The notes: a model not told the origin generated them from the sequence alone. 64,000 nt of DNA from a bacterium (GCA_963675295.2 CAXXKJ010000002.1:288001-352000), one strand, 5' to 3'. Positions 17,383-35,526 are shown, counted from the stretch's first letter. Numbers and translations are program-made.

Positions 17383-17458
17383 GATCCCTGCTGGCGGAGC
17401 CATCAGGGGCACATATTCAGGGATGGTTGAATTCGAGGGGAAGGGTGCGCGCGATCTC

Positions 17459-19519
17459 ATGAGAGTCGTGTTGACAGGTGGAGGCAGTGGCGGACATGTG
17501 AGCCCGATGCTCGCGGTCGCGGAGGCGTTGCGTGAGCTCGAGCCGACGGTCGATCTGCGCTATATCGGGGTACGCAACGGCCTCGAAGCCGACCTCGTCC
17601 CCCGGGCGAACATCCCGATCCGTTTCGCGTCCGCCATCGGCATGCCCGGCATGTCGCTTTCGCCCGCGATGTTCAAATTCCTGTTCACGTTGCTCGGCGG
17701 TGTCCTCGCCGCAACGGGTCACCTGATCGCGTATCGTCCCCATGTGATTGTCGCCTCCGGCGGTTTCGCCAGCGCCCCAGCCGTGTTCGCGTCGGCATTC
17801 CTGCGCGGCCTGACCTTTGGTTTGTGGCGCATCCCGGTTTATCTGCACGAACAAAACGCCGTCCCCGGCCGGATGAACTCCGCCGCCGCACGCATCGCCC
17901 GGCAGGTCGGCGTCGTGCACGCGGTGTCGTTGAACCGGCTGCCGCATGCCGTCAACGAAGTCGTTGGCTATCCGGTGCGAGCGGGATTTGCTTCGGTGGA
18001 CCGTGCCACGGCCCGCAAGGAACTGGGCGTCCCGGATGATGCGGAATATGTCGTCGTCACCGGCGGTAGCCAGGGCGCGCGCACGATCAACCGGGCGGTT
18101 GTTGATGCGCTGCCGTTCCTTGCCGATCGCCGGAACCTGTGGCTGACCCACTCCACCGGCGCGATGAAGGGCCGGGGCTATGACGCGGTCGGTGACACGA
18201 AGTCTCGACTCGACGCCAACTCCCGCAAGCCGGACCATTACCGCGTTACCGACTACCTGCACGACATGCCCTTGCACCTCGCCGCAGCGGACCTCGCGGT
18301 GATCCGTGGCGGCGCGGGCTCGCTGTTCGAGGTCTGCACCCAGGGCCTGCCCGCGTTGGTGATTCCGAAGGCGAATCTGCCCGGCGACAGCCAGGTGGCC
18401 AACGCCCGCGAGTTGGCGGCGCGCGGCGCGATTGAACTGTTGTACGAGGAGCCAGCGTTCGTGGACGGCGCTTTCATCGAAGTGGTCCCCGGCGAATTGA
18501 TGGCGGAGAAGATCACGGCGTTGCTCGACAATCCGGACCGTCGCCATGAGCTGAGCGCCAGGGCGAAAGAGGCGTTTGACCGGCGTGCGGCGAACCGGAT
18601 CGCGAAACGGGTGGTCGCGTTGGCGAAGAGCATCCGCGCGATCGACGTCGAGAACGACAACACGCCGAGCTCTGCCGAAACGTTGACCGAAACCACGCTG
18701 CCCGATTCGCCGACCGCGTTGCGCCGGTATGCCGAGCAGGTGATGGGCGTGCGTTACGAGCGGGCGTTCGCGCAGGGTCCGATCCGCGACTGGGAGCTGG
18801 AGAAGCTGGACGATCTCGCGTACTTCCGTTATCGCGGCGCGGCGTTGCTGGCACACTCGCACTGGTCGATGCGCAATGAAGGGATCAAGCTGTTGGCGTT
18901 GACCCGGCACGTCGACAAGCTGGACCTCGTGCTCCATGTGCTCACCGACCGTACCCCCGCGCCAAAGCTGCACCGCATGCTCGGCGGCGACTTCGCCCAG
19001 GTCGGGTTCATCCGCCGGAACGCCGTTAACGCGCTCGCGTTCATGGGTGTGGTCAACGAGGATGTGCGCGCGGCGATTGTCACCGCGTTGGACGATCCCT
19101 ACTACGAGGTCCGCTCGGCGACGCTCAAGCTGATCCGTTCGATGATCAAGAATGATCATAAGTTGGCCGATAATCCGGAGATCGTGTCGCGGGTGCGGAA
19201 ACTGACACGCGACCGCAATCTCGAGGTTCACTGGGAAGCGTTGCACACCTTCGGCTTCGTCGGCGCGCCGGAGGATGTGCTGGCTACCAACCGCGCGTAC
19301 GCCGTCACCGGCAAGACGCCACTGCGCGAGGCAGTGCTGCGTTCGTATCACGCCCTGCTCGACCGCTATGATGGCGCGGCGGATGAGCCGTGGCGTCACC
19401 AGTTGAGCGACGACATCGACCATTTCGCCATCACCTCGCTGGCGTTCCACCCCCATTTCCCGTTGAAGGAACGGTACGTCTCGCTCTGCAAACGGATGGA
19501 CGAGGAGGTTTCGGCATGA
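17459..19519 (+). CDS. murG: MurG glycosyltransferase fused to a C-terminal HEAT-like repeat domain
   Basis: TGGGSGGH, GGFAS.P, HEQN..PG.MN, GGSQGA, RGGAGS..E, Q..NA; C-terminal 270 aa with RRNAVNAL/DPYYEVR/EVHWEAL helical repeats. Confidence 0.85.
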   Translation: MRVVLTGGGSGGHVSPMLAVAEALRELEPTVDLRYIGVRNGLEADLVPRANIPIRFASAIGMPGMSLSPAMFKFLFTLLGGVLAATGHLIAYRPHVIVASGGFASAPAVFASAFLRGLTFGLWRIPVYLHEQNAVPGRMNSAAARIARQVGVVHAVSLNRLPHAVNEVVGYPVRAGFASVDRATARKELGVPDDAEYVVVTGGSQGARTINRAVVDALPFLADRRNLWLTHSTGAMKGRGYDAVGDTKSRLDANSRKPDHYRVTDYLHDMPLHLAAADLAVIRGGAGSLFEVCTQGLPALVIPKANLPGDSQVANARELAARGAIELLYEEPAFVDGAFIEVVPGELMAEKITALLDNPDRRHELSARAKEAFDRRAANRIAKRVVALAKSIRAIDVENDNTPSSAETLTETTLPDSPTALRRYAEQVMGVRYERAFAQGPIRDWELEKLDDLAYFRYRGAALLAHSHWSMRNEGIKLLALTRHVDKLDLVLHVLTDRTPAPKLHRMLGGDFAQVGFIRRNAVNALAFMGVVNEDVRAAIVTALDDPYYEVRSATLKLIRSMIKNDHKLADNPEIVSRVRKLTRDRNLEVHWEALHTFGFVGAPEDVLATNRAYAVTGKTPLREAVLRSYHALLDRYDGAADEPWRHQLSDDIDHFAITSLAFHPHFPLKERYVSLCKRMDEEVSA

Positions 19520-21848: not shown

Positions 21849-21864
21849 CCCGAGTCCACGAGAG

Positions 21865-21890
21865 TAAATCGGACACGCGTATCCGATTTA
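21865..21890. repeat. 26-bp palindrome family B (copies at 29030-29055 and 56556-56581)
   Basis: taaatcggacacgcgtatccgattta / taaatcggacacgcgtgtctgattta / aaaaccggacacgcgtgtccggtttt. Confidence 0.75.
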
Positions 21891-21981
21891 ACGGGACAGA
21901 GAAATGCCACGGACAGACAGCGCCCGTGGCATCCTTTTCGCCCACGCCTGGCTGGATCGCCCAGATGCGACCAGCCAACCG

Positions 21982-22473
21982 TTATTTCTTCGTCATCTCC
22001 AGCGCGATGGCAAACGGATCGCTGGATTTTTTCTTCGCGTACTCTTCCGCTTCCTGGTCGGTCCACGGCTTATCGTCCCACACCAGCGCGCCGGTCGGGC
22101 AGTATTTCGCACAGGCCGGGTCGCCTTTGCAGACGTCGCACTTGATGTATTCATTGTGCGTGTCATCGTAGTCCATGCAGCCGAACGGGCAGGCCTTGAC
22201 GCAGAACCCGCAGCCGATGCACTTGTCGTTGACTTCGATCGCGCCGGTTTCCGGGTTGCGTTCCAGCGCGCCGACGGGGCACACCGCCATGCACGACGGT
22301 TCGTCACACTGCAGGCACAGCAGCACGAAGTTGTTCTGATCGTCCACCTTGAACGACTGCACCCGTGGCCGTGCGGGCACGCCGGGGACAGGTGTGTTCG
22401 CCAGGCTGCAGGCTTGTTCGCAGACCTTGCAGTCGATGCAACGGTACGGGGTTACGTACAGGCGCTTGCTCAT
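21982..22473 (-). CDS. Poly-[4Fe-4S] ferredoxin (CooF/HydN/AOR small-subunit type)
   Basis: CIDCKVCEQAC, CLQCDEPSCMAVCP, CIGCGFCVKACP, KCDVC..DPACAKYCP. Confidence 0.9.
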   Translation of the reverse strand: MSKRLYVTPYRCIDCKVCEQACSLANTPVPGVPARPRVQSFKVDDQNNFVLLCLQCDEPSCMAVCPVGALERNPETGAIEVNDKCIGCGFCVKACPFGCMDYDDTHNEYIKCDVCKGDPACAKYCPTGALVWDDKPWTDQEAEEYAKKKSSDPFAIALEMTKK

Positions 22474-22530
22474 CGTTCGCCTCTGTCTATCTTGGCCGGG
22501 GCTTTCAACCCCGGTTTCGTTGTTCTGTTC

Positions 22531-22629
22531 ATGCCCCAGACATTCATGTCTGGGATCATCCGCGTCTGCAAGATGTTTGACACGGCCACACGTGTTTGAA
22601 CTCTTACCACGGACTTTAGTCCGTGGTAA
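22531..22629. repeat. REP cluster: TGCCC hairpin, inverted partner and family C palindrome
   Basis: atgccccagacattcatgtctgggatc; atccgcgtc...gacacggccac; ttaccacggactttagtccgtggtaa. Confidence 0.75.
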
Positions 22630-22638
22630 ATGGGAAGA

Positions 22639-23460
22639 TCACTTCGCGTCTTCCGCCAGACGATCTTCGACATCGGCGACCCGGCTCAACTTCCGCGCGT
22701 ACTCGTACCGTTTCACCTTCGCCGATTCCTGCTTCATCGTTTCCGGCCACACCAGGCCGTTGCCCTCGGCGCGTTTCTGCACATGCGAGAGATACTCCGG
22801 TGTGCCGAGCACTTCGCCGGTGCGTTCGTCGGTGACGAGGTCGAATTCCTTGTCCCAGATCCGGCGCTTGCCGTTATCGTTTTCGACGAACGGGATCGCG
22901 TCGGTCGGGCACAGTTTCGCGCACACCAGGCAGCCGATGCAGGCGTCCTTGTTCGGCACGTCCACGTATTTGTCCGGCCCACGGCTGAGCGTGGCGATGG
23001 CGCTGCGGCCGATCGCTTCGCACGCGCGCACGCAGATCGTACACATGATGCACGTATCGTCCGTGTCGCGTGGGGTGTAGGACGTTTCGGTGACACCGTA
23101 GTCGGCGGCGAGCTGCTTGATGTAGTCGCTCTCCGGCACACGGGCCATCTGCAGATCGAGCACCACGCTCCGGTTCTGCCGTACCTCGTCCGAATCGGTC
23201 CACACCTTCAGGCCTTCCTCGACCGGGTACAGGCAGCTGGTGACGAGCTGTTTGTACCAGTCATCCCAGCCCGGTTTCTGGATTTCGACGACACACAGGC
23301 GGCATGCGCCGAAGGGTTCCAGCGCCGGATGTGCGCACAGGCTCGGGACATCGATACCCATCCCGCGCGCCACGTCGAGGATCATCGCGCCTTTCGGTGC
23401 GTCAACCTCGCGGTCGTCAATGGTCAGATGGACCGTCTCGTTTGTTTTTGCTTCGCTCAT
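22639..23460 (-). CDS. Short NuoG/HydA N-terminal-like Fe-S subunit (BfuA-like), no catalytic domain
   Basis: [2Fe-2S] LC..GACRLC..TSC plus CIMCTICVRAC and CIGCLVCAKLCP; ends at 273 aa without H-cluster or Mo-bisPGD domain. Confidence 0.85.
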   Translation of the reverse strand: MSEAKTNETVHLTIDDREVDAPKGAMILDVARGMGIDVPSLCAHPALEPFGACRLCVVEIQKPGWDDWYKQLVTSCLYPVEEGLKVWTDSDEVRQNRSVVLDLQMARVPESDYIKQLAADYGVTETSYTPRDTDDTCIMCTICVRACEAIGRSAIATLSRGPDKYVDVPNKDACIGCLVCAKLCPTDAIPFVENDNGKRRIWDKEFDLVTDERTGEVLGTPEYLSHVQKRAEGNGLVWPETMKQESAKVKRYEYARKLSRVADVEDRLAEDAK

Positions 23461-23483
23461 GAGTTTCCTCAAGGCTCCGGTAC

Positions 23484-23674
23484 TACCGCGGACTGAAGTC
23501 CGTGGTAAGAAGTGTATGTAAAGCTATCACATGCCCACGACATGAACGTCGCGGATCATCGTCGTTTGTGCCCCAGACGTTTGTATCTGGGATCATCATC
23601 GCTTGTGCCCCAGACATTCATGTCTGGGATTAACCACCGTATTCAGGTCCGCGTCTGCAAGCAGACACGGCCAC
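23484..23674. repeat. REP cluster: family C palindrome, three tandem TGCCC hairpins (37-nt period) and one inverted copy
   Basis: taccgcggactgaagtccgtggtaa at 23484; hairpin heads at 23531, 23568, 23605. Confidence 0.8.
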
Positions 23675-23724
23675 GCTTCTACTTTTACTATCAGTTACTA
23701 TCTTTTACTATCCGTCACTTCTGT

Positions 23725-25659
23725 TCAAGCTACCGCGTCGCGGCTGACGATCTTGTCGCCGCTCTTGATATCCACCGCGTCAAACTTACAGACGCTCTTG
23801 CAGATCCCGCACGAGATGCACTTGTCCGGATCGATGGTGTACATCTTCTTCTTCACGCCGGTGATCGCTTCGGTCGGGCAGTGACGCGCGCAGATGTCGC
23901 AGCCAGTGCAATCCTCGTTGATCTCGTACGTGATCAGGCTCGGGCACACCCCCGCACGGCATACCTTGTGCTGGATGTGCTCTTCGTACTCTTCGCGGAA
24001 ATACTTCAGCGTCGAGGTGACCGGGTACGGTGCCGATTTGCCAAGCGCGCACAGGCTGGCGACTTCCATCGTGTGGCACAGCTTTTCGATCTTCTCGATG
24101 TCGCCGTCCTCGCCCTCGCCCTTGGTGATCTTGTCGAGCAGGTCGTAGACCTGGCGCAGGCCTTCACGGCACGGGACGCACTTCCCGCAGCTTTCACCGA
24201 TCAGGAAGTTGATGAAGTATTTTGCGACGTCGACCATGCAGGTGTGATCGTCCATCACGATCATCCCGCCCGATCCCATCATCGCGCCGGCACGGCTGAG
24301 CGTGTCGAAATCCACCGGCAGGTCGAGCTTGTCGGCCGGGAGGCAGCCGCCGGACGGTCCGCCGGTCTGTACCGCCTTGAACGGGCGGTCGTCAATGATT
24401 CCGCCGCCGATGTCGTAGATGATCTCGCGCAACGTGCGGCCCATCGGCACTTCGATCAGGCCGGTGTGTTTCACCTTGCCGACCAGCGAAAACGCCTTGG
24501 TGCCCTTGGACTTGTCGCGTCCCATGCTGGCGAACCAGCCCGCGCCCTTGTCGATGATCGCCGGGACGCAGGTGAAGGTCTCGACGTTGTTCAGCACCGT
24601 TGGTTCGTCGTGCAGGCCTTTTTCGACGCTGCGCACATACTTCGCGCGCGGTTCGCCGACCTTGCCTTCGAGCGAACGCATCAGCGCGGAGGATTCGCCG
24701 CAGACAAACGCGCCGCCACCACGGGAGATGCGAATGTTCAGCGTCATCCCGGTGCCGAGGATGTTGTCCCCGAGCAGGCCGGCGGTGTGCAGCTTATCGA
24801 TCGCCAGTTGCAGGTGTTCGACCGCCAGCGGGTACTCGTGACGGACGTAGATGTAGGCATCGGTCGCGCCCAGCGCGTACGCCGCGATCATCATCCCTTC
24901 GAGCACGCTGTACGGGTCGCCTTCCATGATCGCGCGGTCCATGAACGCGCCCGGGTCGCCTTCGTCCCCGTTGCAGATCAGCCACACCCGATCCTGCTTC
25001 ACCCGCAGCGCGCCACGCCATTTGCGACCGGTGGAAAAACCCGCGCCGCCACGTCCACGCAGCCCACTCTCCTCGACCTGGTCAATGACCGCCTCCGGCG
25101 TCATTTCGGAAATCGCTTTCGCGAACGCCGCGAATCCGCCTTCGGCGAGGAAATCGTCAAAGCTGGTCGGGTCGACGACGCCGACATTCCGCAACGCCAC
25201 CCGCACCTGCAAACTGTAGAACGGGATGTCGGTGTAACGTTCGGCCTTGCCGCCACCACGTTCATGGCCCAGCTCATACAGCAGCGGGTCGACGAGCTGA
25301 TCGTTCAGCAGCGTCTTTTCGACGATCTTCTTCGCGTCGCGCGGTTTCACGCCGGTATAGAATGTGCCTTCCGGTTCGAGCGTGACCACCGGCCCGGCTT
25401 CGCACATGCCGTGGCAGCCGGTGCACTTTTCGGACAGGGTTGCGTCCAGCTCGAGTCCGGCGGCTTTCAGTTCCTTCGCGTGCGATTTGATCTCGCTCTG
25501 GAACTGTTTGTGGATGTCCTTCGCCCCGCGTGCGATACAGCCCGGCCCGGCGCAGACACGGATTTCCTGCTTGATCGCCTTGCGTTCGGTCCGGATAGCT
25601 TCAGCGCGTTCGAGCAGAGCCTGCGGGCTGCCAAAGGGTTTGCCGTTTCCTGAAATCAT
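23725..25659 (-). CDS. NuoF/HydB-like NADH/FMN-binding subunit (BfuB-like)
   Basis: N-terminal CAGPGC..CHGMC; GLRGRGGAGF, GDEGDPGAFMDR, GGPSGG, ESCGKC.PCR, C-terminal 2x[4Fe-4S]. Confidence 0.9.
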   Translation of the reverse strand: MISGNGKPFGSPQALLERAEAIRTERKAIKQEIRVCAGPGCIARGAKDIHKQFQSEIKSHAKELKAAGLELDATLSEKCTGCHGMCEAGPVVTLEPEGTFYTGVKPRDAKKIVEKTLLNDQLVDPLLYELGHERGGGKAERYTDIPFYSLQVRVALRNVGVVDPTSFDDFLAEGGFAAFAKAISEMTPEAVIDQVEESGLRGRGGAGFSTGRKWRGALRVKQDRVWLICNGDEGDPGAFMDRAIMEGDPYSVLEGMMIAAYALGATDAYIYVRHEYPLAVEHLQLAIDKLHTAGLLGDNILGTGMTLNIRISRGGGAFVCGESSALMRSLEGKVGEPRAKYVRSVEKGLHDEPTVLNNVETFTCVPAIIDKGAGWFASMGRDKSKGTKAFSLVGKVKHTGLIEVPMGRTLREIIYDIGGGIIDDRPFKAVQTGGPSGGCLPADKLDLPVDFDTLSRAGAMMGSGGMIVMDDHTCMVDVAKYFINFLIGESCGKCVPCREGLRQVYDLLDKITKGEGEDGDIEKIEKLCHTMEVASLCALGKSAPYPVTSTLKYFREEYEEHIQHKVCRAGVCPSLITYEINEDCTGCDICARHCPTEAITGVKKKMYTIDPDKCISCGICKSVCKFDAVDIKSGDKIVSRDAVA

Positions 25660-26246
25660 GCCGGCTTCTCCTTCTTCAGCATTTTGCCGATGTTGCCGGG
25701 TGCCATGTTGGCGTAGTAATTGTCGCCAACCATCACCACGGGCGCCATGGCGCATGCGCCGACGCAGTTGACCGTTTCGAGGCTGTAGTCGCCGTCTTCG
25801 CTCATCCCGTGCCCGGGTTCGACCTTGAGGCTGCGTTTCAGCTCATCGACCAGCATCCCGGCGCCACGGACATGGCACGCCGTTCCGAGGCACACCTTGA
25901 CCGTTTTCTTGCCCTTCGGCTCAAGCGAAAATGCCTTGTAGAACGTGGCGACGCCCTGCACCTTGCCGAACGGGACACCGAGCTTCTCCGCTACCCGCAG
26001 CAACGCCTTCGGCGGCAACCACTGGTAGTGGTCGTTCAGCTCCTGCAGCACCATGATCAGGCTGGGCTCTTCCAGCGGATAATGGGCGAGGATCTCGTCC
26101 GCCGCGCGTTCCTCGTCACTGAGGTCGCTCGGTCGTGATTTGTTCGGCCGGGGCGGAGCTTTCGCGCCGGTATCGCCGGCAGCGGGCTCCAACGCCTCGG
26201 TGTTGTCGAGATCGACGTCGGTTTTCTTCGCGCGACGCGGGCTCAT
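25656..26246 (-). CDS. NuoE/HydC-like [2Fe-2S] subunit (BfuC-like)
   Basis: VATFY..F, VCLGTACHVRG, CVGACAMAP; ATGA overlaps on both sides. Confidence 0.9.
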   Translation of the reverse strand: MSPRRAKKTDVDLDNTEALEPAAGDTGAKAPPRPNKSRPSDLSDEERAADEILAHYPLEEPSLIMVLQELNDHYQWLPPKALLRVAEKLGVPFGKVQGVATFYKAFSLEPKGKKTVKVCLGTACHVRGAGMLVDELKRSLKVEPGHGMSEDGDYSLETVNCVGACAMAPVVMVGDNYYANMAPGNIGKMLKKEKPA

Positions 26247-26797
26247 AGCACAGCCTCCAGCGCTTGCTTGGCGATTTTTGCGCCTTCCCGGATGCAGGCG
26301 ATGTTCGACTCGATGAACTGCGGCTTGCGGGCGAAGGTGACCGGCACCTGCGCGACCACGGTTTCGAGGCTGACCACCCCGGAGCATGCGACATACGCGC
26401 CGAGAATGACCATGTTCGCGCCACGGTTGTTGCCGAGTTTCATCGCGACGTCATTGGCCGGCACCAGGATCTCGTGCACGTCTTTCCGTTGCACACGGTC
26501 CGGGATCAGGGTGCTGTTGACCAGGATGAAGCCGCCCTCACGGATCGTCGGCTCGAATTTCTCGAGGCTCGGACGGTTCATCGCGACGAGATCAGATGGG
26601 TTGTTCACCACCGGGCTGCCGATCGGATGGTCGGCGATCACGACGGTACAGTACGCCGTCCCGCCGCGCATCTCCGGGCCGTACGATGGCACCCACGCCA
26701 CCTCTTTGCCTTCTTCCAGGGCGGCGTCGGCGAGGAAATGCCCAGCCGACAAAATGCCCTGCCCGCCGAATCCGGCGAATTTCACTTCACGTTGCAT
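26243..26797 (-). CDS. 2-oxoacid:ferredoxin oxidoreductase gamma subunit
   Basis: AGFGGQG, PSYGPEMRGG, NMVILGA. Confidence 0.9.
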   Translation of the reverse strand: MQREVKFAGFGGQGILSAGHFLADAALEEGKEVAWVPSYGPEMRGGTAYCTVVIADHPIGSPVVNNPSDLVAMNRPSLEKFEPTIREGGFILVNSTLIPDRVQRKDVHEILVPANDVAMKLGNNRGANMVILGAYVACSGVVSLETVVAQVPVTFARKPQFIESNIACIREGAKIAKQALEAVL

Positions 26798-26888
26798 CGT
26801 CTGTCCTCCAACCGGGAGGGTTGGTTTTGTTCAAATGGGGGACACTCGCACGAAGTAGGGGTGTCCCCATGTCTTATGTATCAGAGGG

Positions 26889-26981
26889 TGTCATCCTGAA
26901 CGCAGTGAAGGATCTCTAGATTATCCAACGTTTTACCCAGCTGGAGATTCTTCACTTCACGTCGTTCCGTTCAGAATGACA
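26889..26981. repeat. GTCATCCTGAAC...CAGAATGAC palindromic element (family D)
   Basis: tgtcatcctgaacgcagtgaaggatctc...gagattcttcac...gttcagaatgaca long imperfect inverted repeat. Confidence 0.75.
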
Positions 26982-26996
26982 TCGTATATCATCCAA

Positions 26997-28937
26997 TTAC
27001 TTCACCACCACCAGTCGTTTCGTCTGGGTGTAGGCTGAACCGGCGTCAACGCGCACGAGGTACGTCCCGCTCGGGTAGTGATCGAGCTCCAGGTGCAGAC
27101 GCTGTCCGCCGGGATGAATCACGCCGGCGTCAATGGTGTCCACTGTGCGGCCGAGGATGTCGCTGATCGCAACGGTCACCCGCTGCGCCGTCGGCACGGA
27201 CACGGTGATCGTCGTCGCGGCGTTCGCCGGGTTCGGGTAGACCTGTACGTCCAGATCCGCCCGTACCGCCAACGGTTCGTTTTCACCCGCCGTCACCGTC
27301 GTTCCGTCAAACGCGTTCGCCAGTTCGGACGGCGCGGAGCCGCTCATTGTCCACATCTGCGGCGCCGTGCTGGACGCGACCGTATTCGCGGTCACGGTGA
27401 ACGCAAACTCATCCTGCGCGGCGACGAAATTCGGGAAAATGCCGGCGTACGCGTGCCACGTATAGTCGCCCACCGGTGCCATCTGCGGGATTGGCTGCGT
27501 GACGTTTGCGACACTCAAGTCCATGTTGTCTTCGAACTGCAGGCGAACGCGTGCGACCGGCCCGTACAGGCTGCCGTTCGGCAGGGTTGCCGCCAGCCAG
27601 ACGTCGCCCGGACGATTCATCGGCAAGTCGCCGGTTGTTAGCGCGATACCGTAGCTGAAGCTTCCGCCGCGCGGCACATTGATCGGCGTGTTGTGCGGCG
27701 TCAGGGTCAACGTGACCAGCGGATTCGTGCCGCCGGACACCCCTTCGAAGCAATACGCACCGCCGCTGCTGGCGGAGATGATGTCGCCGTTGTTCGCGAC
27801 TGCCGCGCCGGCGTAGTGGTTGTTATTGAGCGGATACGACCACAGTTCGGCCAGGGTCGCCGGGTCCAGCGCGTAGAGGCGCCCGTCGCTGGTGCCGGTC
27901 GCGCAGTAGATGGTGTTGTTGTCGTCCACAGCGAAGCGCGGGTAGCCGAGATAGGTTCCGCTGGTCAACGGGGCGGAGGTTGCGAGCACGTCGCCGGTCG
28001 CGTAGGCGTGACGCTTGACCACGGTCGCGTGCGTTACCACGACGTCGCCATTGTCCAATGTTGCGAAGTGTCCGCCGATGGGTGGAATCGGTCCGAAGTT
28101 GACCGGAACCTGCCACACGATCTCGAAGCCGGTGCCGGTGTCTTCGACACGGAACAGGTCGCCGCCGTCGCGGATGATGTAGATCGCGCTGTCGTCGTGG
28201 ACGCTGAACGGGATTTCCTGGTCGCCGTCCCCGGGCAACGAGATGCTGTACAGTTCGGTGCCGGTGGTGAGATCCCACGCGGTAAATTCCACCTGGCCGA
28301 TGCCGCCGTCCCAGCCGTACACCTTCTCGCCGTAGACGCAGACATGTTCCGATCCGCCGATCACCGCGCAGACACGGGGCGTCGTCCAGACAATCGAGCC
28401 GTCCGTGTGGTCCAGCCGTGTCAGCAGGTAGCTGCCGTTCGGGTCCTTGGCGTTGACGATCAGGTCGCCGTTGTTCGCGAACGCCGCGCTGGCGATGATG
28501 CCCTGCTTGAGGCCGGTTTCCGCGATCCAGAGGATCGAACCGTCCGCGGGATCAAGCGCGTACAGCGTATCGTTGTTGGTTTCCTGGAATCCGAGGGCGT
28601 AGATCTGGCCGTCCCGGAAGCCGACCGGCAACGATCGTGTGCTCGGCCCGGGCAGGTCCACAGACCACAGCTCCGCGCCGGTGTTGACGTCGAGGCAGAC
28701 GATGGGGGAGAAGTCGATCGTGTTGAACCGCATCATCGCGGCGTAGTCGCCGTCGGTGTAGATCGGTCCGGCGAACAGGCACGGGTCGTTGTATGTCCAG
28801 CGCAGGGTCGCGTCATCGGGTCCGACGAAATCCGCCTGTCCGTTTCGCAGGCTGCCGCCGCCCATCGTGTGCCATGCGGCGAGGACGGAGATCGGGAGCA
28901 ACGCGCAGATCAGAATCGCGAGTACGGTGGTTTTCAT
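26997..28937 (-). CDS. Secreted PQQ-like beta-propeller protein with C-terminal sorting domain
   Basis: Signal peptide; repeated LYALD..TG..W; VYPNPAN..PSGTYLV C-terminus. Confidence 0.8.
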   Translation of the reverse strand: MKTTVLAILICALLPISVLAAWHTMGGGSLRNGQADFVGPDDATLRWTYNDPCLFAGPIYTDGDYAAMMRFNTIDFSPIVCLDVNTGAELWSVDLPGPSTRSLPVGFRDGQIYALGFQETNNDTLYALDPADGSILWIAETGLKQGIIASAAFANNGDLIVNAKDPNGSYLLTRLDHTDGSIVWTTPRVCAVIGGSEHVCVYGEKVYGWDGGIGQVEFTAWDLTTGTELYSISLPGDGDQEIPFSVHDDSAIYIIRDGGDLFRVEDTGTGFEIVWQVPVNFGPIPPIGGHFATLDNGDVVVTHATVVKRHAYATGDVLATSAPLTSGTYLGYPRFAVDDNNTIYCATGTSDGRLYALDPATLAELWSYPLNNNHYAGAAVANNGDIISASSGGAYCFEGVSGGTNPLVTLTLTPHNTPINVPRGGSFSYGIALTTGDLPMNRPGDVWLAATLPNGSLYGPVARVRLQFEDNMDLSVANVTQPIPQMAPVGDYTWHAYAGIFPNFVAAQDEFAFTVTANTVASSTAPQMWTMSGSAPSELANAFDGTTVTAGENEPLAVRADLDVQVYPNPANAATTITVSVPTAQRVTVAISDILGRTVDTIDAGVIHPGGQRLHLELDHYPSGTYLVRVDAGSAYTQTKRLVVVK

Positions 28938-29029
28938 GCTGCGTCCTCCCGTTAACGTTGAACGAATCGTTTCCGTCATGTCCGGCTGCAGTTTCCAGCT
29001 CAGCTGAACGGCCTTTCAGACGGTACTTT

Positions 29030-29091
29030 TAAATCGGACACGCGTGTCTGATTTATCTGTTTGTCCCGACGGCAAGTGAGCTCGTCGGGCT
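29030..29091. repeat. Family B palindrome plus REP-like hairpin
   Basis: taaatcggacacgcgtgtctgattta; ttgtcccgacg...cgtcgggct. Confidence 0.65.
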
Positions 29092-29145
29092 TACAGGATA
29101 TTTCAGTTACCGACAACCATTCACCGCTTACCTAAGGCCCATAGC

Positions 29146-29931
29146 CTACTTCGCCACCCCCGTCATCCGCTCGAAGTTTTCGTCCGCGCCTTCCGGCGAT
29201 TTTAGTTCGCCGAGCGGGTAGTAGGGGATCATGTTGTCCTTCAGCCATTTGGTTGAATCGGTCGGCGTCATGCCCCAGTTTGTCGGGCAGGTGCTGAGGA
29301 TTTCGACCATGCTGAAGCAGGTCGCCTTGTCCTGGTACTGGAAGGCTTTCCGGATCATCGCCTTGGTCCTGATCGCCCATTGCGGGGAATGGACCGACCC
29401 ACGCGCGATGTAGGCCGGGGTGCGCAGCGTGGACAGCAGCTCGCGCATCCGGATCGGCCAGCCGGCGAGCTCGACGTCACGTCCTGTCGGGCTGGTGGTT
29501 GTCACCTGGCCCGGCAGCGTGGTCGGTGCCATCTGGCCGCCGGTCATGCCATAGATCGCATTGTTGACGAAGATGACAGTGATTTTTTCGCCACGGTTGG
29601 CGGCGTGCAGGATCTCGTTACCGCCGATGGACGCGAGGTCGCCGTCCCCCTGGTACGCGAACACGATCTTCTCCGGCGAGACACGTTTCATCCCGGTCGC
29701 GAAGGCCGGCGCACGGCCGTGCGCGGCTTCGAGGAAGTCGCAGTTGAAGTAGTTGTAGCAGAGCACCGAGCAGCCCACCGGCGCGACACCGACCGCGCGT
29801 TCACGCATGTGCAGCTCGTCCAATACTTCCGCGACGAGACGGTGCGCGACACCATGCGTACACCCGGGACAGTAGTGGGTGTGGTTCGATGACATCGCTT
29901 CGGGCTTGCAGAAAATCGTGTTCTCGGCCAT
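29146..29931 (-). CDS. 2-oxoacid:ferredoxin oxidoreductase beta (TPP-binding) subunit, Vor-like
   Basis: HYCPGC.HG, PVGC, HGRA, YQGDGD, NN..YGMTGGQ, CPTNW. Confidence 0.9.
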   Translation of the reverse strand: MAENTIFCKPEAMSSNHTHYCPGCTHGVAHRLVAEVLDELHMRERAVGVAPVGCSVLCYNYFNCDFLEAAHGRAPAFATGMKRVSPEKIVFAYQGDGDLASIGGNEILHAANRGEKITVIFVNNAIYGMTGGQMAPTTLPGQVTTTSPTGRDVELAGWPIRMRELLSTLRTPAYIARGSVHSPQWAIRTKAMIRKAFQYQDKATCFSMVEILSTCPTNWGMTPTDSTKWLKDNMIPYYPLGELKSPEGADENFERMTGVAK

Positions 29932-30156
29932 GATGACCTCTATTCGATGTGGGGTCGGGGACATCTGAACGGATCGTTTCTGTTGGTTGAATCCGCAGCA
30001 GGGTTCACTCCACCGTTACGTGTGGCTGAACGTTGCGCGTCAATCCGTTCAGGTGTCCCCTTCCTTTTCGTTACCAAATCTGCCCCGGACATTCATGTCC
30101 AGGATCAACTCAACGTCTTTCGACTTTGTACTTCTGTACTCAGTACGTCCGTTCTA

Positions 30157-31308
30157 CTACTTCTTCTTCGTGGCCGGTTTTTTCGCGGCCGGTTTCTTCG
30201 CGGTGGTCTTTTTTGTTGCTGGTTTCTTTGCCGACGCAGAGGCTTTCTTCGGTAACAGTTTCCGAATCGCATCGATCACTTCTTCCGGGGACGGTACAAT
30301 CCCGCCCTGACGTCCGAAGAAGCTGATCGGCTTGCGGTTGTTGGTGTACAGCCGCACGTCCTCAATCATCTGCCCGTTGTTCATCTCGACGCTGAGGAAC
30401 TGCTTGACGTGCGCTTTCTGGCTCAGCTCGTCAATCGCGACGGCAGGGAAGGGGTAAAGGCTGATAGGCCGGAACAGCGCGACATCCACACCCTCACCGT
30501 TCAGCACGTCGATCGCGGTCTTGCAGACACGGGCGGCAGTGCCGAACGACACGATGATCAGCTCCGGCTTGCCGAGGCCGCCGTACATCTCATGCTTCTG
30601 TTCGTGCTTCGTGATCGTGGCGTACTTCTCGGCGAGGTGATGGTTGTGCGCTTCGTTGTCGGCCGGGTTCAGGTACAGCGTTTTGATGATGTGCTTCTCG
30701 CGTCCTTTTGCTCCGGTCACGGCCCAGCTGGAATGGTCAGCGGGGGTGCCGGTCTTGACGGCGTCGAAGTCGACCGGTTCCATCATCTGCCCGATCAGGC
30801 CGTCCGCAAAGATCATCACCGGGTTGCGGTACTTGTCGGCGAGGTCGAACGCGACCATCATGTGTTCGACCGCTTCCTGTACCGTGGACGGCGCGAGCAC
30901 GATCAGCCGGAAATCGCCGTGTCCGGAGGCGTGTGTCGCCTGGAAATAGTCGCCCTGGCTTGGCAGAATGCCGCCGAGGCCGGGGCCTGCACGGCAGACA
31001 TTGATGAACACACACGGCAGCTCGGCGCTGGTGATGTAGGATAACGCTTCGCTCATCAGGCTGATGCCCGGGCTCGAGCTGGAGGTGAAGACCCGCTTGC
31101 CGGAGGATGCCGCGCCGAAGATCATGTTGGACGCGCCCAGCTCGGATTCCGCCTGCACGAACACACCGCCGACTTCCGGCAATCTGCGCGCGAGGTATTC
31201 CGCGACTTCGGTTTGCGGGGTGATCGGGTAGGCGAAGTAACGGTCGGCACCGGCACGGATGGCCGCTTCACCGATCGCTTCGTTGCCCTTCATCAATTTC
31301 TTTGCCAT
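30157..31308 (-). CDS. vorB: 2-oxoacid (ketoisovalerate-type) ferredoxin oxidoreductase alpha subunit
   Basis: LMKGNEAI, YPITPQ, QAESE, SSSPG, R.GPGLG.I.PSQ.DY, VEM..GQ; Lys/Ala/Pro-rich tail. Confidence 0.85.
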   Translation of the reverse strand: MAKKLMKGNEAIGEAAIRAGADRYFAYPITPQTEVAEYLARRLPEVGGVFVQAESELGASNMIFGAASSGKRVFTSSSSPGISLMSEALSYITSAELPCVFINVCRAGPGLGGILPSQGDYFQATHASGHGDFRLIVLAPSTVQEAVEHMMVAFDLADKYRNPVMIFADGLIGQMMEPVDFDAVKTGTPADHSSWAVTGAKGREKHIIKTLYLNPADNEAHNHHLAEKYATITKHEQKHEMYGGLGKPELIIVSFGTAARVCKTAIDVLNGEGVDVALFRPISLYPFPAVAIDELSQKAHVKQFLSVEMNNGQMIEDVRLYTNNRKPISFFGRQGGIVPSPEEVIDAIRKLLPKKASASAKKPATKKTTAKKPAAKKPATKKK

Positions 31309-31407
31309 GACGGCCTCTTACTTCAGCTGTGAGTTATGAGCTGTGAGTGATGAGCCTGAAAGACAACACAAAACCACGCTCAGCACGTAGCAAGTGACGG
31401 AACTTGC

Positions 31408-31641
31408 CTAATACGGGAAATAGTTGTACTGGACGGCGTTGACGCCGATTTCGATCGCGACATCCGGGCAGGTGATCGCGCACAGGCGGCAGCCGATGCA
31501 GCGCGGCTGGTCGAACACTGTGGCGTAGAAATAGCCCTTGGCGTTGATCTTCTTCGACATCTCGATAATCTGCTGCGGGCAGGCCTGCACACACAGCTCG
31601 CAGCCTTTGCAGCGGTCGGGTTCGATGGTGACACGTGGCAT
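31408..31641 (-). CDS. 2-oxoacid:ferredoxin oxidoreductase delta subunit (2x[4Fe-4S])
   Basis: CKGCELCVQACP, NAKGY, CIGCRLCAITCPD. Confidence 0.9.
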   Translation of the reverse strand: MPRVTIEPDRCKGCELCVQACPQQIIEMSKKINAKGYFYATVFDQPRCIGCRLCAITCPDVAIEIGVNAVQYNYFPY

Positions 31642-31695: not shown

Positions 31696-32337
31696 GCTGA
31701 AAACGTTGTGCGTATTGGCTGTTGGGGACTCGACTGTTCCGGCGGGAACACAGGTGAACGAAAGATAGGGGCAGGGAATTGAGCCGCGCAAATACGCCGG
31801 AGTGTGCAAACCGTTACCAGCTTTGCATAGTGTTCATTTTAACAGCGATGCTGGAAACAGTCAAAATGCCCAGCGTCCATGCGGTCTATCAGCGGGTGTG
31901 GGGTCGCCTGGGCACCAGGTCATTCACCTGTTCACCGGAGAAAGGGGAGGTTAACCATGTGAAAAGATACGCAAGAACGTGTTCTGTCAAGGGTTTCGTG
32001 GTCGTGGTCGGCGATGTTTTCAGCACTGGAAAGTGGTCTCGTCCGATCTATATGGGCCGGCCCGTACTGCATGCCTCCGGAAATCGGCACCCCCTCCGGG
32101 AGGGAATCGCCCCTAACAGTATAGGAATTAGGGAATTACCTCGGAACTACGGATTATAAGCGGATGTAAATCATCATTGACCTGTTCGAGAGAAAGTTGT
32201 TAGCTTGAGCTTCAGAGGGGCAAAACTACGGGGAAAGTCCGCCTCTCAAACATGGATAGCAAGATCTGCGCATCACTTAATCCCCCCTTCAGGATACCAC
32301 TCAATCCGGCCACGCCGGACAAGCGGAGGACCTGTCC

Positions 32338-34596
32338 ATGAAACACCTGCCCCTTTTACTTCTGATCATCTGCCTGATAGTCGCGATGCCAGTCGTGTCC
32401 GGCTCCAAGATGACACCGGCGGAACGGCAGCAGTACAACATCGATCAGAAAACACAATCCGATACGGACCCCGGCCTTCCGCACCTTGACAGCACCGGCG
32501 GTCCGGATACCTTCGGCTACACCTGGATCGACAGCGAGGAGGCTGGCGGACCCACCTACAGCTGGGTCGATATCACCGCCACCGGCACCGAAATCGCGGC
32601 GGCGGATGAATTGGACGACGATGACCGCGTCGGCCCGTACCCAATCGGATTCCTGTTTCCGTTTTACGGTGCGGGGGAAGAATACTTCTGGGTGCAATCC
32701 AACGGTGGCGTGTCGTTTGTCCCGAACCTTCTTGGATTATCCAATCAGTCGATGCCGTACCAGTATTTTGGCGCGCTGATTGCGTTGTTCTGGGACGATC
32801 TCGATCCGGAGAACGGTCTGTACGGCAGCGTTTACTATGACACGGTGACCATCGGCACGCAGGACGCATGCGTCGTCTCGTTCATCAACTACTCGGAGCA
32901 TCCGCCAAGCGACACGTCACCCCGCATCAACATGCAGGTCTTGCTGTTCGAGGATGGCCGCATTCGTCTGCAGTACCAGTCCATCGACAACGGCTTCGAC
33001 TGTACCAGCTGCACGGTGGGGATTCAGAACCACGCTGGCAACGACGGTCTCTCGGTCATCTACAACAATGCCAGCGGCAACTATCCGTATGCCGGGTATG
33101 TCGTCGACTTCATACCACCGACACCGACGGCCGCTCTCTACGGTATCGTTTATCTGCAGGGTGGAGCGCCTCTGGCCGGCGCAAACGTCCGTTGCGGTTG
33201 CAGAGAAACGGTTACGGATGCTGTCGGCAGCTACACGATCACGGGATTGTACCCTGGAACGTACAAGGACATCGTCTGGAAATCGGGTTACGACGCGATC
33301 AACAGTACGACGACTCTTGCAACTGGGACGAACAATCTGAACTATGCGCTTTCGCTCAGCCCGACCCCGATCAACGGCCCGTTCACGGACGATTTCGAAA
33401 GCGGCGGTACGCCGTTGTTCACAGGTTCCGGTGACTGGGAATTTGGATCACCAACCTATGATCCCAACGGCGCCCATTCTGGCAGCAACGCCTGGAGTAC
33501 TATCCTCAACGGGGATTACAACCTCAACCGTGACGACTGGCTGATTTCGCAGAAAGGGTTCGTCGTCCAGGCAAATTACTCGCTGAAGTACTGGCACTGG
33601 TTCGACTATGAGGGTGGATACGACGGCTACAATGTCTGGATTTCCACCACCGCCGGGGCGTTCTGGGAGATGCTCTATCCGACGGACGGCTACAGCGATC
33701 CGGACGGATTCTACACCGCCTTTGGGCTGCCGAACTTCAATAACTGGAACACGAACGAAGAGCGAATGTGGGTAGAAAAGGAATTCCCGCTCGGGGACTA
33801 TGTCGGCCAGACAGTCTGGTTCGCCTTCCGCCACAACACCGACGTCTCGGTCGTTTATTCCGGGGTGACGATCGACGACCTCGACTTCAGCAGCGGCGGC
33901 ACCGCGCCGTATGTGCTGCTCCAGTTATGGCCGGTGAATGTCAACATTCCGTCCTACGGCGGCATGCTGGTGTACGACGCCGGTATTACCAGCACCTACA
34001 GCCAGATGATCACCGGCCAGGCGTGGACCGATCTCATCCTGCCGAACGGCAACTCGTACGGCCCGTTGATGGTCATTCCGGTCAATGTCATGCCCGGCTA
34101 CAGGTTCTTCGGCAACCTGACGCAGAACATTCCTGCGATGGCACCGCCGGGACCGTACATGTTCAACGGGTACCTCGGACGGAGACCGTATGTCGCGTCC
34201 ATGGATAGTTTCCCGTTCACCAAAACGGTTGTTCCGGGGCCGGACGGTGAGGAAGTGTTGAACTGGGATGCTGAGGAATGGGTGAGCTCGGACGCGCCGC
34301 CGGAGGTCGTGGAAACGGCCGCTCAGCTTCCGGAATCGTTCGCGCTGCATGCCGTATGGCCGAACCCGTTCAACGCGTCCGCGACGATCACCGTTGACTT
34401 GCCGGTGACGGCGAACCTGGAGGTTTGTGTTTTCAACCTGAACGGGCAGGAGATGGCGGTGCTCGTGAACGGCCAGACCGAAGCTGGGTCGCACAGCTTG
34501 CATCTGGACGGATCAACCTGGGCGAGTGGTGTGTACTTTGTGCAGGCGCGGCTGGGTGATCAGGTCGCAGTGCAGAAGATGACGCTGCTCAAGTAA
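32338..34596 (+). CDS. Secreted multidomain protein (GGPD.FGY/NIDO-like, carboxypeptidase-regulatory-like, jelly-roll, C-terminal sorting domain)
   Basis: Signal peptide; TGGPDTFGYTWIDS, FWDDL, TDAVG.Y, YDGYNV, WPNPFN..ASGVYFV. Confidence 0.8.
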   Translation: MKHLPLLLLIICLIVAMPVVSGSKMTPAERQQYNIDQKTQSDTDPGLPHLDSTGGPDTFGYTWIDSEEAGGPTYSWVDITATGTEIAAADELDDDDRVGPYPIGFLFPFYGAGEEYFWVQSNGGVSFVPNLLGLSNQSMPYQYFGALIALFWDDLDPENGLYGSVYYDTVTIGTQDACVVSFINYSEHPPSDTSPRINMQVLLFEDGRIRLQYQSIDNGFDCTSCTVGIQNHAGNDGLSVIYNNASGNYPYAGYVVDFIPPTPTAALYGIVYLQGGAPLAGANVRCGCRETVTDAVGSYTITGLYPGTYKDIVWKSGYDAINSTTTLATGTNNLNYALSLSPTPINGPFTDDFESGGTPLFTGSGDWEFGSPTYDPNGAHSGSNAWSTILNGDYNLNRDDWLISQKGFVVQANYSLKYWHWFDYEGGYDGYNVWISTTAGAFWEMLYPTDGYSDPDGFYTAFGLPNFNNWNTNEERMWVEKEFPLGDYVGQTVWFAFRHNTDVSVVYSGVTIDDLDFSSGGTAPYVLLQLWPVNVNIPSYGGMLVYDAGITSTYSQMITGQAWTDLILPNGNSYGPLMVIPVNVMPGYRFFGNLTQNIPAMAPPGPYMFNGYLGRRPYVASMDSFPFTKTVVPGPDGEEVLNWDAEEWVSSDAPPEVVETAAQLPESFALHAVWPNPFNASATITVDLPVTANLEVCVFNLNGQEMAVLVNGQTEAGSHSLHLDGSTWASGVYFVQARLGDQVAVQKMTLLK

Positions 34597-35342: not shown

Positions 35343-35369
35343 TCTATCCACGTGGCCCAGTCTATCCAC

Positions 35370-35526
35370 GTGCCCCAGACACTCGTGTCTGGGCTGATCC
35401 GAGGATCCATCACCATGCCCACGACATTCATGTCGTGGATTCTCCGCTCTTGCCCGAGTTGGCTTTGACAACGCGGGCTTTCCGGAAGCGGCCGCAGTCT
35501 GCCCTGACGAGTTTACTCGTCGGGAT
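35370..35526 (+). repeat. Cluster of four TGCCC-head REP-like hairpins
   Basis: Heads at 35370, 35415, 35450, 35499 with different stem interiors. Confidence 0.75.

Follow-up and report, generated by a model that had tools for sequence, protein, structure and literature searches.

A VorB-family 2-oxoacid oxidoreductase encoded with a WorC-B-A-S-like module: a probable eight-subunit electron-bifurcating enzyme

Introduction

Why would an electron-bifurcating module be encoded together with an enzyme whose substrate can itself reduce ferredoxin? This question is raised by a run of genes at positions 21982-31641 of a 64,000-nucleotide stretch of bacterial DNA (GCA_963675295.2 CAXXKJ010000002.1:288001-352000; hereafter the window), in which the subunits of a 2-oxoacid:ferredoxin oxidoreductase (OFOR) are encoded beside proteins of the Bfu family. 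Bfu enzymes are defined by an invariant BfuBC core carrying clusters B1-B5 and C1 (Schut et al. 2022, PMC9304861). We propose that the run probably encodes an eight-subunit Type 2 'Vor-Bfu' enzyme, which would turn hydrophobic 2-oxoacids into acyl-CoA while coupling the reduction of NAD+ to that of ferredoxin.

Layout of the gene run

Nine open reading frames (ORFs), all intact and on the minus strand, with one stop each and a GC content at third codon positions (GC3) of 0.80-0.85, make up the run. Pfam and NCBIfam name them, in order, as OFOR delta, alpha and beta subunits, a beta-propeller protein with a type IX secretion system (T9SS)-type tail, OFOR gamma, a NuoE-like, a NuoF-like and a short NuoG-like protein, and a four-cluster ferredoxin. 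An earlier sequence-only reading of this DNA had given the same order, and the ATGA overlaps that it reported at the gamma/NuoE and NuoE/NuoF junctions are both present, each of 4 nt. The remaining spacers run from 99 to 264 nt; palindromic repeats found in several of them are also present at other places in the window.

A Bfu core with the marks of bifurcation

The NuoE/HydC-like protein, BfuC (196 aa, 25656-26246), matches PF01257 and carries the C1 [2Fe-2S] motifs at residues 119 and 160. The NuoF/HydB-like protein, BfuB (644 aa, 23725-25659), contains the FMN/NAD(H) site and the ligands of clusters B1-B5. Its Pfam domains, PF01512, PF10531 (SLBB), PF10589 and PF00037, correspond to the FMN/NADH domain, SLBB, the B1 [4Fe-4S] domain and the C-terminal 2x[4Fe-4S] (B3/B4) domain, respectively. 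To gauge conservation, we counted residues in the window copy and 35 operon relatives (n=36). The N-terminal B5 [2Fe-2S] ligands (C36, C41, C82, C86) and the B2-site ligands (C474, H561, C567 and C572, three Cys plus a His) were present in 36/36 copies, as were the B3/B4 cysteines of the C-terminal 2x[4Fe-4S] region (C584-C624). At B1, one Cys is replaced by Asp in 3/36 proteins. The GAFMD motif lies at 237-241 and GGPSG at 433. Compared by eye with Supplementary Figure 10 of PMC9304861, residues of the bifurcating set are also retained, namely A238 (36/36) and M240 (35/36) at the NADH site and F318 (36/36) at the FMN site. The best PDB matches of BfuB are bifurcating HydB/WorB proteins (724-700 bits), compared to ≤383 bits for the non-bifurcating FdsB/NuoF. 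Judged by its sequence, BfuB bears every mark that defines bifurcating Bfu enzymes. The features that had been listed for the NuoF-like subunit (N-terminal [2Fe-2S] domain, GAFMD, GGPSG, extra C/H/C/C ligands and C-terminal 2x[4Fe-4S]) were thus all located, and all testable sequence criteria agree with the assignment to Bfu.

A Type 2 BfuA and a WorS-like subunit without WorL

The short NuoG-like protein, BfuA (273 aa, 22639-23460), had been described as ending without an H-cluster or molybdenum domain, and Pfam agrees, finding neither an H-cluster nor a molybdopterin domain. Pfam also finds no NADH-G_4Fe-4S_3 domain in the window protein, and the HxxxCxxC motif occurs in 1/36 family members. 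We assign BfuA to Type 2, with A1, A2 and A4 present and without A3, A5 or a catalytic domain; it also matches WorA along its full length. Its best PDB match is WorA (9mqx_A, E 2.9e-43; next 1e-21). The AlphaFold model (mean predicted local distance difference test score, pLDDT, 90.6) matches WorA with Z 23.9 and a root-mean-square deviation of 3.0 over 244/247 residues; the next entry scores Z 20.2 over 185. The family profile aligns through the C-terminal adaptor helix of WorA, which falls at about residues 247-261 of the window protein, and Tyr238/Ala239/Phe242 of WorA correspond to Y254/A255/L258, positions that are hydrophobic or small across the family. In WorABCSL, this helix recruits WorS, and electrons take the route S4-A4-A2-A1 (PMC12318220).

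The protein encoded by the last gene (163 aa, 21982-22473) is a 4x[4Fe-4S] subunit of the WorS/AorA type, and we propose it as the wire between OFOR and BfuA. Its best PDB matches are AorA (8c0z_C, E 3.9e-31) and WorS (9mqx_E, E 1.2e-27), 16 cysteines are invariant in 34 copies, the positions of the S-subunit groove hold hydrophobic residues in the window copy, and Phe97 is invariant in 34. Most of these proteins (22/34) stop ≤20 residues past the last Cys-Pro, which leaves no room for the filament helix of WorS and makes a 1:3 nanowire unlikely in most members. The window copy has 39 residues there. In one related protein (P0124), an operon-type S subunit, sister to that of locus L069, is fused to a Fer4_5-family membrane-type ferredoxin domain; this fusion is possibly a membrane tether or a read-through artifact.

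A tblastn search with WorL as the query gave no match in the 64-kb window or in the flanks (≤10 kb) of the 37 operon loci described below. Likewise, no gene for an aldehyde oxidoreductase (AOR), a CO dehydrogenase (CODH) or an H-cluster protein was found within the window. By homology, the redox half corresponds to a WorC-B-A-S module whose cluster lacks WorL. The sequence-only reading had labeled this module as HydABC/Bfu without a catalytic subunit, a label that is right as to the Bfu core and that missed its WorABC-plus-WorS nature. Recognizing the latter provides a concrete wiring model and separates the cluster from the published Por-Bfu.

A VorB-family oxidoreductase, probably for hydrophobic 2-oxoacids

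The OFOR genes follow the order delta-alpha-beta-gamma, with the inserted gene between beta and gamma. Delta (77 aa, 31408-31641) carries 2x[4Fe-4S] and a C-terminal tail with an invariant final Tyr. Alpha (383 aa, 30157-31308) belongs to the VorB family, scoring 502 bits against model NF005507 (cut-off 399), and has the YPITP motif, Glu54 and Arg106. Its C-terminus (30157-30250) is a low-complexity tail rich in Lys and Ala; basic tails of differing length are seen in many relatives. Beta (261 aa, 29146-29931) has the GDGD motif for binding thiamine pyrophosphate (TPP) and the proximal [4Fe-4S] ligands C21, C24, C54 and C215. Gamma (184 aa, 26243-26797) matches PF01558, and its stop overlaps the start of BfuC. 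YPITP, Glu54, Arg106 and GDGD, like the four cysteines of the proximal cluster, do not vary in the operon alpha and beta alignments. The score above the NF005507 cut-off, the subunit order and the intact TPP and cluster motifs all place the enzyme in the VorB family. The Por, Kor, Ior, Oor and Pad models all fall below their cut-offs for the window OFOR (e.g. PorA_Arch, 101 bits versus 550).

One position of beta bears on the substrate. Where solved 2-oxoglutarate enzymes carry x-Arg, the operon betas carry Val-Leu or Val-Phe (33/33). The Arg binds the distal carboxylate, and its replacement therefore makes a hydrophobic 2-oxoacid likely. The VOR sequence cluster also contains an arylpyruvate (hydroxyphenylpyruvate) enzyme (PMC13285125), and for this reason the substrate is not fixed as branched-chain. 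The substrate is likely a hydrophobic 2-oxoacid, most likely branched-chain and possibly aryl.

Conservation and co-inheritance of the two halves

We scanned GTDB species genomes with BfuB and analyzed the loci of the best 80 of 355 confirmed relatives; the counts given here are lower bounds. The gene for gamma lies directly before bfuC in 37/80 loci, and the eight-gene arrangement, for which the sequence-only reading had suggested a synteny search, recurs with all genes in order in 31/80. Contig ends or an N gap truncate the six incomplete operon loci. One of them, L058, had seemed an exception without delta, alpha and beta, and was dropped as such since its N gap lies directly before gamma. 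A WorS homologue is present in 34/37 operon loci. Within these 80, the eight-gene order is kept down to 56% BfuB identity, a recurrence beyond what chance would give.

Most operon loci are tightly packed, with median gaps between -4 and 24 nt, and L011, L021 and L045 have no gap above 30 nt. Going by automatic start calls, gamma and bfuC overlap in 31/37 loci. Their junction stays within 300 nt throughout, a length that each of the remaining six junctions surpasses in 1-4 loci. Between the two halves, pairwise identities correlate at 0.77-0.88 (Spearman; alpha-BfuB 0.84, alpha-BfuA 0.88), compared to 0.80 for within-module controls. Correlated divergence of this kind shows co-inheritance, not contact. 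Together, conserved order, the overlapping gamma/BfuC junction and matching divergence support the idea, already put forward in the sequence-only reading, that OFOR and Bfu would form one functional unit.

The titles of the operon-locus records name six phyla: Zixiibacteriota, Ignavibacteriota, Myxococcota, Acidobacteriota, Planctomycetota and Deferrimicrobiota. In quick LG+G4 trees of both halves, entries titled Ignavibacteriales or Deferrimicrobium interleave with Zixibacteria, and hence the breadth may be smaller or reflect transfer. When the 38 operon BfuBs were constrained to one clade, the approximately unbiased test gave p-AU 0.149, a value compatible with a single origin without establishing it; the unconstrained tree requires 3 changes. 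Their neighbors in the BfuB tree are Wor-, CODH- and FlpD-linked BfuBs, a placement compatible with clade 45 of the published scheme in a tree that was built without its reference sequences. None of the other 43 loci had OFOR genes matching those of the window. Their partners, from a scan of 50 of 97 neighboring ORFs, include WorSL, CODH, AFOR_C-fused BfuA, FlpD/FAD-domain and FeFe proteins. Among the matches listed for plasmid and phage collections, there was no full-length WorA-type BfuA and no copy of the operon.

A candidate link between the halves

The tail of delta is a candidate for the link between the two halves. In all 34 aligned operon copies of delta, the chain stops exactly 20 residues past the last Cys-Pro, with Tyr as the invariant final residue, and the tail has further aromatics at positions 72 (34/34) and 75 (31/34). 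In the monomer model the tail has low confidence and no structure, and a Tyr-ended tail is absent from delta in 5/5 stand-alone Vor operons. These two properties suit a peptide that folds on a partner, and we regard the tail as a candidate docking strap. We also considered the 120/120 tail-bearing delta matches of a wider search as independent support and dropped them as circular, because the search profile itself included the tail.

Fusion proteins offer another view of how an S-like domain and an OFOR can be joined. The model of PadI, an OFOR beta fusion, is matched by the S-like protein at positions 9-136 and by beta at 226-364. Among the best 150 of 15,896 representative matches, P0165 has a WorS-type domain fused to OFOR beta and P0221 adds an NAD-type flavoprotein domain. 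In a complex prediction, beta (1-250), gamma and delta together with the S subunit (1-140) gave scores of 0.60, 0.66 and 0.59. In the controls, replacing the partner gave 0.00 twice, while replacing beta gave 0.54, missing the required margin. The score may stem from a kept chain, and we take these predictions as neither support nor counter-evidence.

Proposed mechanism

In the reaction we envisage, the alpha/beta/gamma/delta OFOR would decarboxylate a hydrophobic 2-oxoacid on TPP with CoA, and electrons would pass from the proximal cluster of beta to the two clusters of delta, a route that is established for OFORs. They would then enter the WorS-type subunit instead of free ferredoxin, with docking probably via the delta tail and/or gamma. 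The C-terminal helix of BfuA would hold the S subunit, and by homology with WorABCSL electrons may follow S4-A4-A2-A1 to BfuB. Finally, BfuBC would reduce NAD+ and ferredoxin jointly, electrons passing by B1 to FMN and from there to NAD+ and, via C1/B2-B4, to ferredoxin. The predicted net reaction is 2 RCOCOO- + 2 CoA + NAD+ + 2 Fd(ox) -> 2 acyl-CoA + 2 CO2 + NADH + 2 Fd(red).

With pyruvate as a proxy and the potentials of PMC9304861, the mean acceptor potential is about -390 mV (NADH -280, ferredoxin -500) against a donor at -500 mV, which corresponds to about -21 kJ/mol oxoacid. Even if most of the ferredoxin were already reduced, oxidation would thus still be drawn forward, which is the rationale given for Wor-Bfu. 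The reverse reaction would be harder than with ferredoxin alone. On these energetics we favor the catabolic direction.

A more specific version of the proposal, quite possible if still somewhat doubtful, is that a TPP enzyme became hard-wired to a Bfu core through a WorS-type adaptor, independently of Por-Bfu, and that the Tyr-ended tail of delta evolved as its docking strap.

Alternative explanations

One alternative is that there is no tight bifurcation and that the module is an NAD+-reducing sink, either bound to the OFOR, as an equivalent of PadEFGHI, or re-oxidizing free ferredoxin from an ordinary Vor. From about -500 mV both half-reactions are downhill (PMC9304861, Table 1), and NAD-linked OFORs with a WorS-type domain exist. 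However, the ligands of B2-B5, which are absent from non-bifurcating homologues, are kept in 36/36 copies, and WorABCSL faces the same thermodynamics yet requires both acceptors. We consider a simple sink unlikely.

Two separate, co-regulated enzymes form another alternative, with BfuABC-S acting as a Wor-Bfu whose WorL is encoded elsewhere. OFORs release aldehydes as side products, and these are among the substrates that such an enzyme might oxidize. The module is indeed closest to WorABC plus WorS in both sequence and fold, and true WorS-WorL-BfuCBA loci lie close by in the BfuB tree (L056, L059, L062, L068, L075 and L078). Against this, WorL directly follows WorS in Wor loci, whereas a search of the flanks of all 37 operon loci revealed no AOR; in a quick tree, the WorS-like proteins of the operons, that of L017 excepted, separate from the WorL-linked ones; and the short C-termini of 22/34 S-like proteins speak against a WorS-type filament. 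Separate enzymes are in our judgment improbable.

Least probable of all is a single anabolic complex that confurcates NADH and reduced ferredoxin to carboxylate acyl-CoAs to 2-oxoacids for amino-acid synthesis: this direction has been proposed for the Por-Bfu of Dehalococcoides (PMC9304861), reverse running has been proposed for a methanogen VOR (PMC13285125), and 14 loci have a gene for a citryl-CoA-lyase-like protein close to the operon, but a mean potential of about -390 mV makes carboxylation at -500 mV about 21 kJ/mol oxoacid harder than ferredoxin alone, and in most of the 14 loci the lyase-like gene is divergent with another gene between it and the operon.

Our preferred and probable reading is a catabolic, bifurcating Vor-Bfu, against which several observations must be set. 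The benefit of bifurcation is not obvious, since a 2-oxoacid can reduce either acceptor without it (PMC9304861). In the window, the run is interrupted by a passenger gene and by repeats, and BfuA has lost the zinc-finger cysteines, which are complete in 20/36 copies. A gene of ∼250 aa for a CbiA/ParA-like P-loop ATPase lies upstream of delta in 30/37 operon loci (31 by tblastn; e.g. L007:3165-3962, L010:6350-7081) and is absent from the window and from L001 and L002; its product could be a maturation factor. Correlated divergence is expected for any co-inherited neighbors. The comparison set for the delta tail consists of 5 Bacillota/Bacteroidota operons on one side of the alpha tree, and consequently the tail may simply mark a clade or have its binding partner within the OFOR. 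A search for BfuA-OFOR fusions gave none: of 721 longer BfuA relatives, the best 120 are FlpD/FAD-domain fusions without an OFOR Pfam domain, an absence that counts as weak evidence. Finally, the literature searched contains no biochemistry for this cluster or for Por-Bfu.

If the proposal is correct, Zixibacteria and other uncultured anaerobes would oxidize amino acids by a route with coupled reduction of NAD+ and ferredoxin. The cluster hints at how NADH and reduced ferredoxin may be balanced in peptide-fermenting uncultured lineages. It also makes two questions testable: why Bfu enzymes bifurcate from donors strong enough for ferredoxin by themselves, and how BfuBC accommodates a dimeric OFOR. 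To this end it offers a compact operon, a structural model borrowed from WorABCSL, and sites for mutation in the BfuA helix, the S-subunit groove and the delta tail.

Inserted gene, flanking features and related loci

The gene between beta and gamma (26997-28937) encodes a protein of 646 aa with a beta-propeller and a T9SS-type C-terminal domain, as identified by Pfam and NCBIfam. A full-length orthologue occupies this position in 2/37 operon loci (L001 and L002). Its secreted-type domains and its presence in those two loci rule it out as an enzyme subunit; it is a lineage-specific passenger. The beta/gamma spacer is a hot spot for insertion in this lineage, with two such genes in L002 and different insertions in other loci. 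A second secreted-type protein with a T9SS-like C-terminal domain is encoded beside the operon (32338-34596). The citryl-CoA-lyase-like gene of the 14 loci is short, with a citrate-synthase C-domain (e.g. L014:2361-3128); it occurs in the Zixibacteria clade, mostly divergently upstream.

Upstream of delta, on the same strand, is a weak promoter-like site (31836-31864) with 10/12 consensus matches and a TG element. Sites as good as this one number 3, compared to 3.2 expected by chance, and hence the call rests on position. Downstream of the last gene, at a convergent junction with a GNAT gene, stable hairpins on the minus strand (21865-21934; fold z-score -4.8 for 21850-21981) are the probable end of the transcription unit. 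The terminator scan called none there, and the promoter and terminator scan was overall at or near chance. Short intergenic palindromes resembling repetitive extragenic palindromic (REP) elements, of several families, occupy the operon spacers and recur across the window. One group comprises 2693-2726, 22527-22560, 23527-23634, 30076-30109 and 35366-35444; further groups are 21865-21890 with 29030-29055, 22602-22629 with 23484-23510, and about 26875-26985. Rfam had no match anywhere in the window, these palindromes included. Elsewhere in the window, a MurG with a long C-terminal extension (∼300 aa; 17456-19519) adjoins mraY.

Loci outside the operon group show further variety among Bfu proteins. 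Fusions of BfuA to AFOR_C without AFOR_N (∼665 aa; L023:1212-3212, L029:4216-6204, L034:12125-14119, L035:7155-9152, L039:11797-13818, L057:12216-14210 and relatives) belong to a well-supported BfuB clade of 16 rows, in which L049 has an AFOR_N ORF upstream. This clade resembles a Type 1 Bfu with a split tungsten oxidoreductase, a form missing from the Type 1 enzymes that PMC9304861 lists, as far as the part of that source used here extends. In three loci with Planctomycetota or Sumerlaeota titles (L050, L064 and L076), a gene for CO dehydrogenase comes directly after bfuC, bfuB and a short bfuA; L050 and L064 also encode a four-cluster ferredoxin upstream. Codh-Bfu has been described as confined to Firmicutes (PMC9304861), and these loci lie outside that phylum. 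BfuA fusions of 500-1320 aa with FlpD/MvhD, extra ferredoxin and FAD domains form a large family (L024:7902-11846; P0271-P0390).

Comparison with known systems

That an oxoacid oxidoreductase might be linked to Bfu had been noted in the sequence-only reading as already predicted, and such a prediction is indeed in print as Por-Bfu (Por-BfuABCDEFG), with 7 subunits and 12 sequences, mainly from Chloroflexi and syntrophic Proteobacteria (PMC9304861). The window cluster is a previously undistinguished variant of this predicted class. Both have four TPP-oxidoreductase subunit genes beside bfuC-B-A, a Type 2 BfuA and a proposed coupling of 2-oxoacid, NAD and ferredoxin, and both are uncharacterized. 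However, the BfuA of Por-Bfu is described as lacking the C-terminal helix, and Por-Bfu as lacking WorS (PMC12318220), whereas the window cluster has 8 subunits, the BfuA helix, a WorS homologue and an OFOR of the VorB rather than the PorA family. Because helix and WorS homologue are present, we regard it as a different build. Por-Bfu BfuBs were placed in clades 35, 44 and 45 (PMC9304861), and some 'Por' entries of clades 35 or 44 could be of the Vor-Bfu type. In the literature searched, which did not extend to subscription papers, we found no description of a Vor-linked Bfu and no characterized bifurcating enzyme driven by a 2-oxoacid; the part of a 2026 review of pyruvate:ferredoxin oxidoreductases (PFOR) used here does not mention 'Bfu' (PMC13768988).

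WorABCSL of Acetomicrobium mobile (PDB 9mqx, PMC12318220) resembles the window cluster in BfuC, BfuB, a short BfuA with A1, A2, A4 and the helix, a 4x[4Fe-4S] S subunit and a low-potential third substrate. It differs in that the window cluster has a TPP enzyme in place of the tungsten subunit WorL and has lost the zinc finger; in addition, most homologues of its S subunit do not reach the length needed for the filament helix. Stand-alone Vor operons (NF005507, e.g. L081-L085) share the delta-alpha-beta-gamma order and an alpha that is 49-50% identical, but they have no Bfu genes in 4-kb flanks, a delta without the Tyr-ended tail, and Gln in place of Leu115 of alpha (5/5).

In PadEFGHI, the NAD module is the flavoprotein PadH, not BfuABC. 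The PadI model scores 90 and 39 bits with the window proteins (cut-off 700), and all Pad models fall far below cut-off. Even so, this phenylglyoxylate:NAD+ oxidoreductase (named in PMC5109826) likewise joins an OFOR to a pyridine-nucleotide module with a four-cluster domain of the WorS/AorA type, the domain being fused to beta in PadI and separately encoded in the window. If our proposal holds, Vor-Bfu would complete a two-by-two set, in which AorABC oxidizes aldehydes with NAD alone, WorABCSL oxidizes aldehydes with bifurcation, PadEFGHI oxidizes a 2-oxoacid with NAD alone, and Vor-Bfu would oxidize 2-oxoacids with bifurcation.

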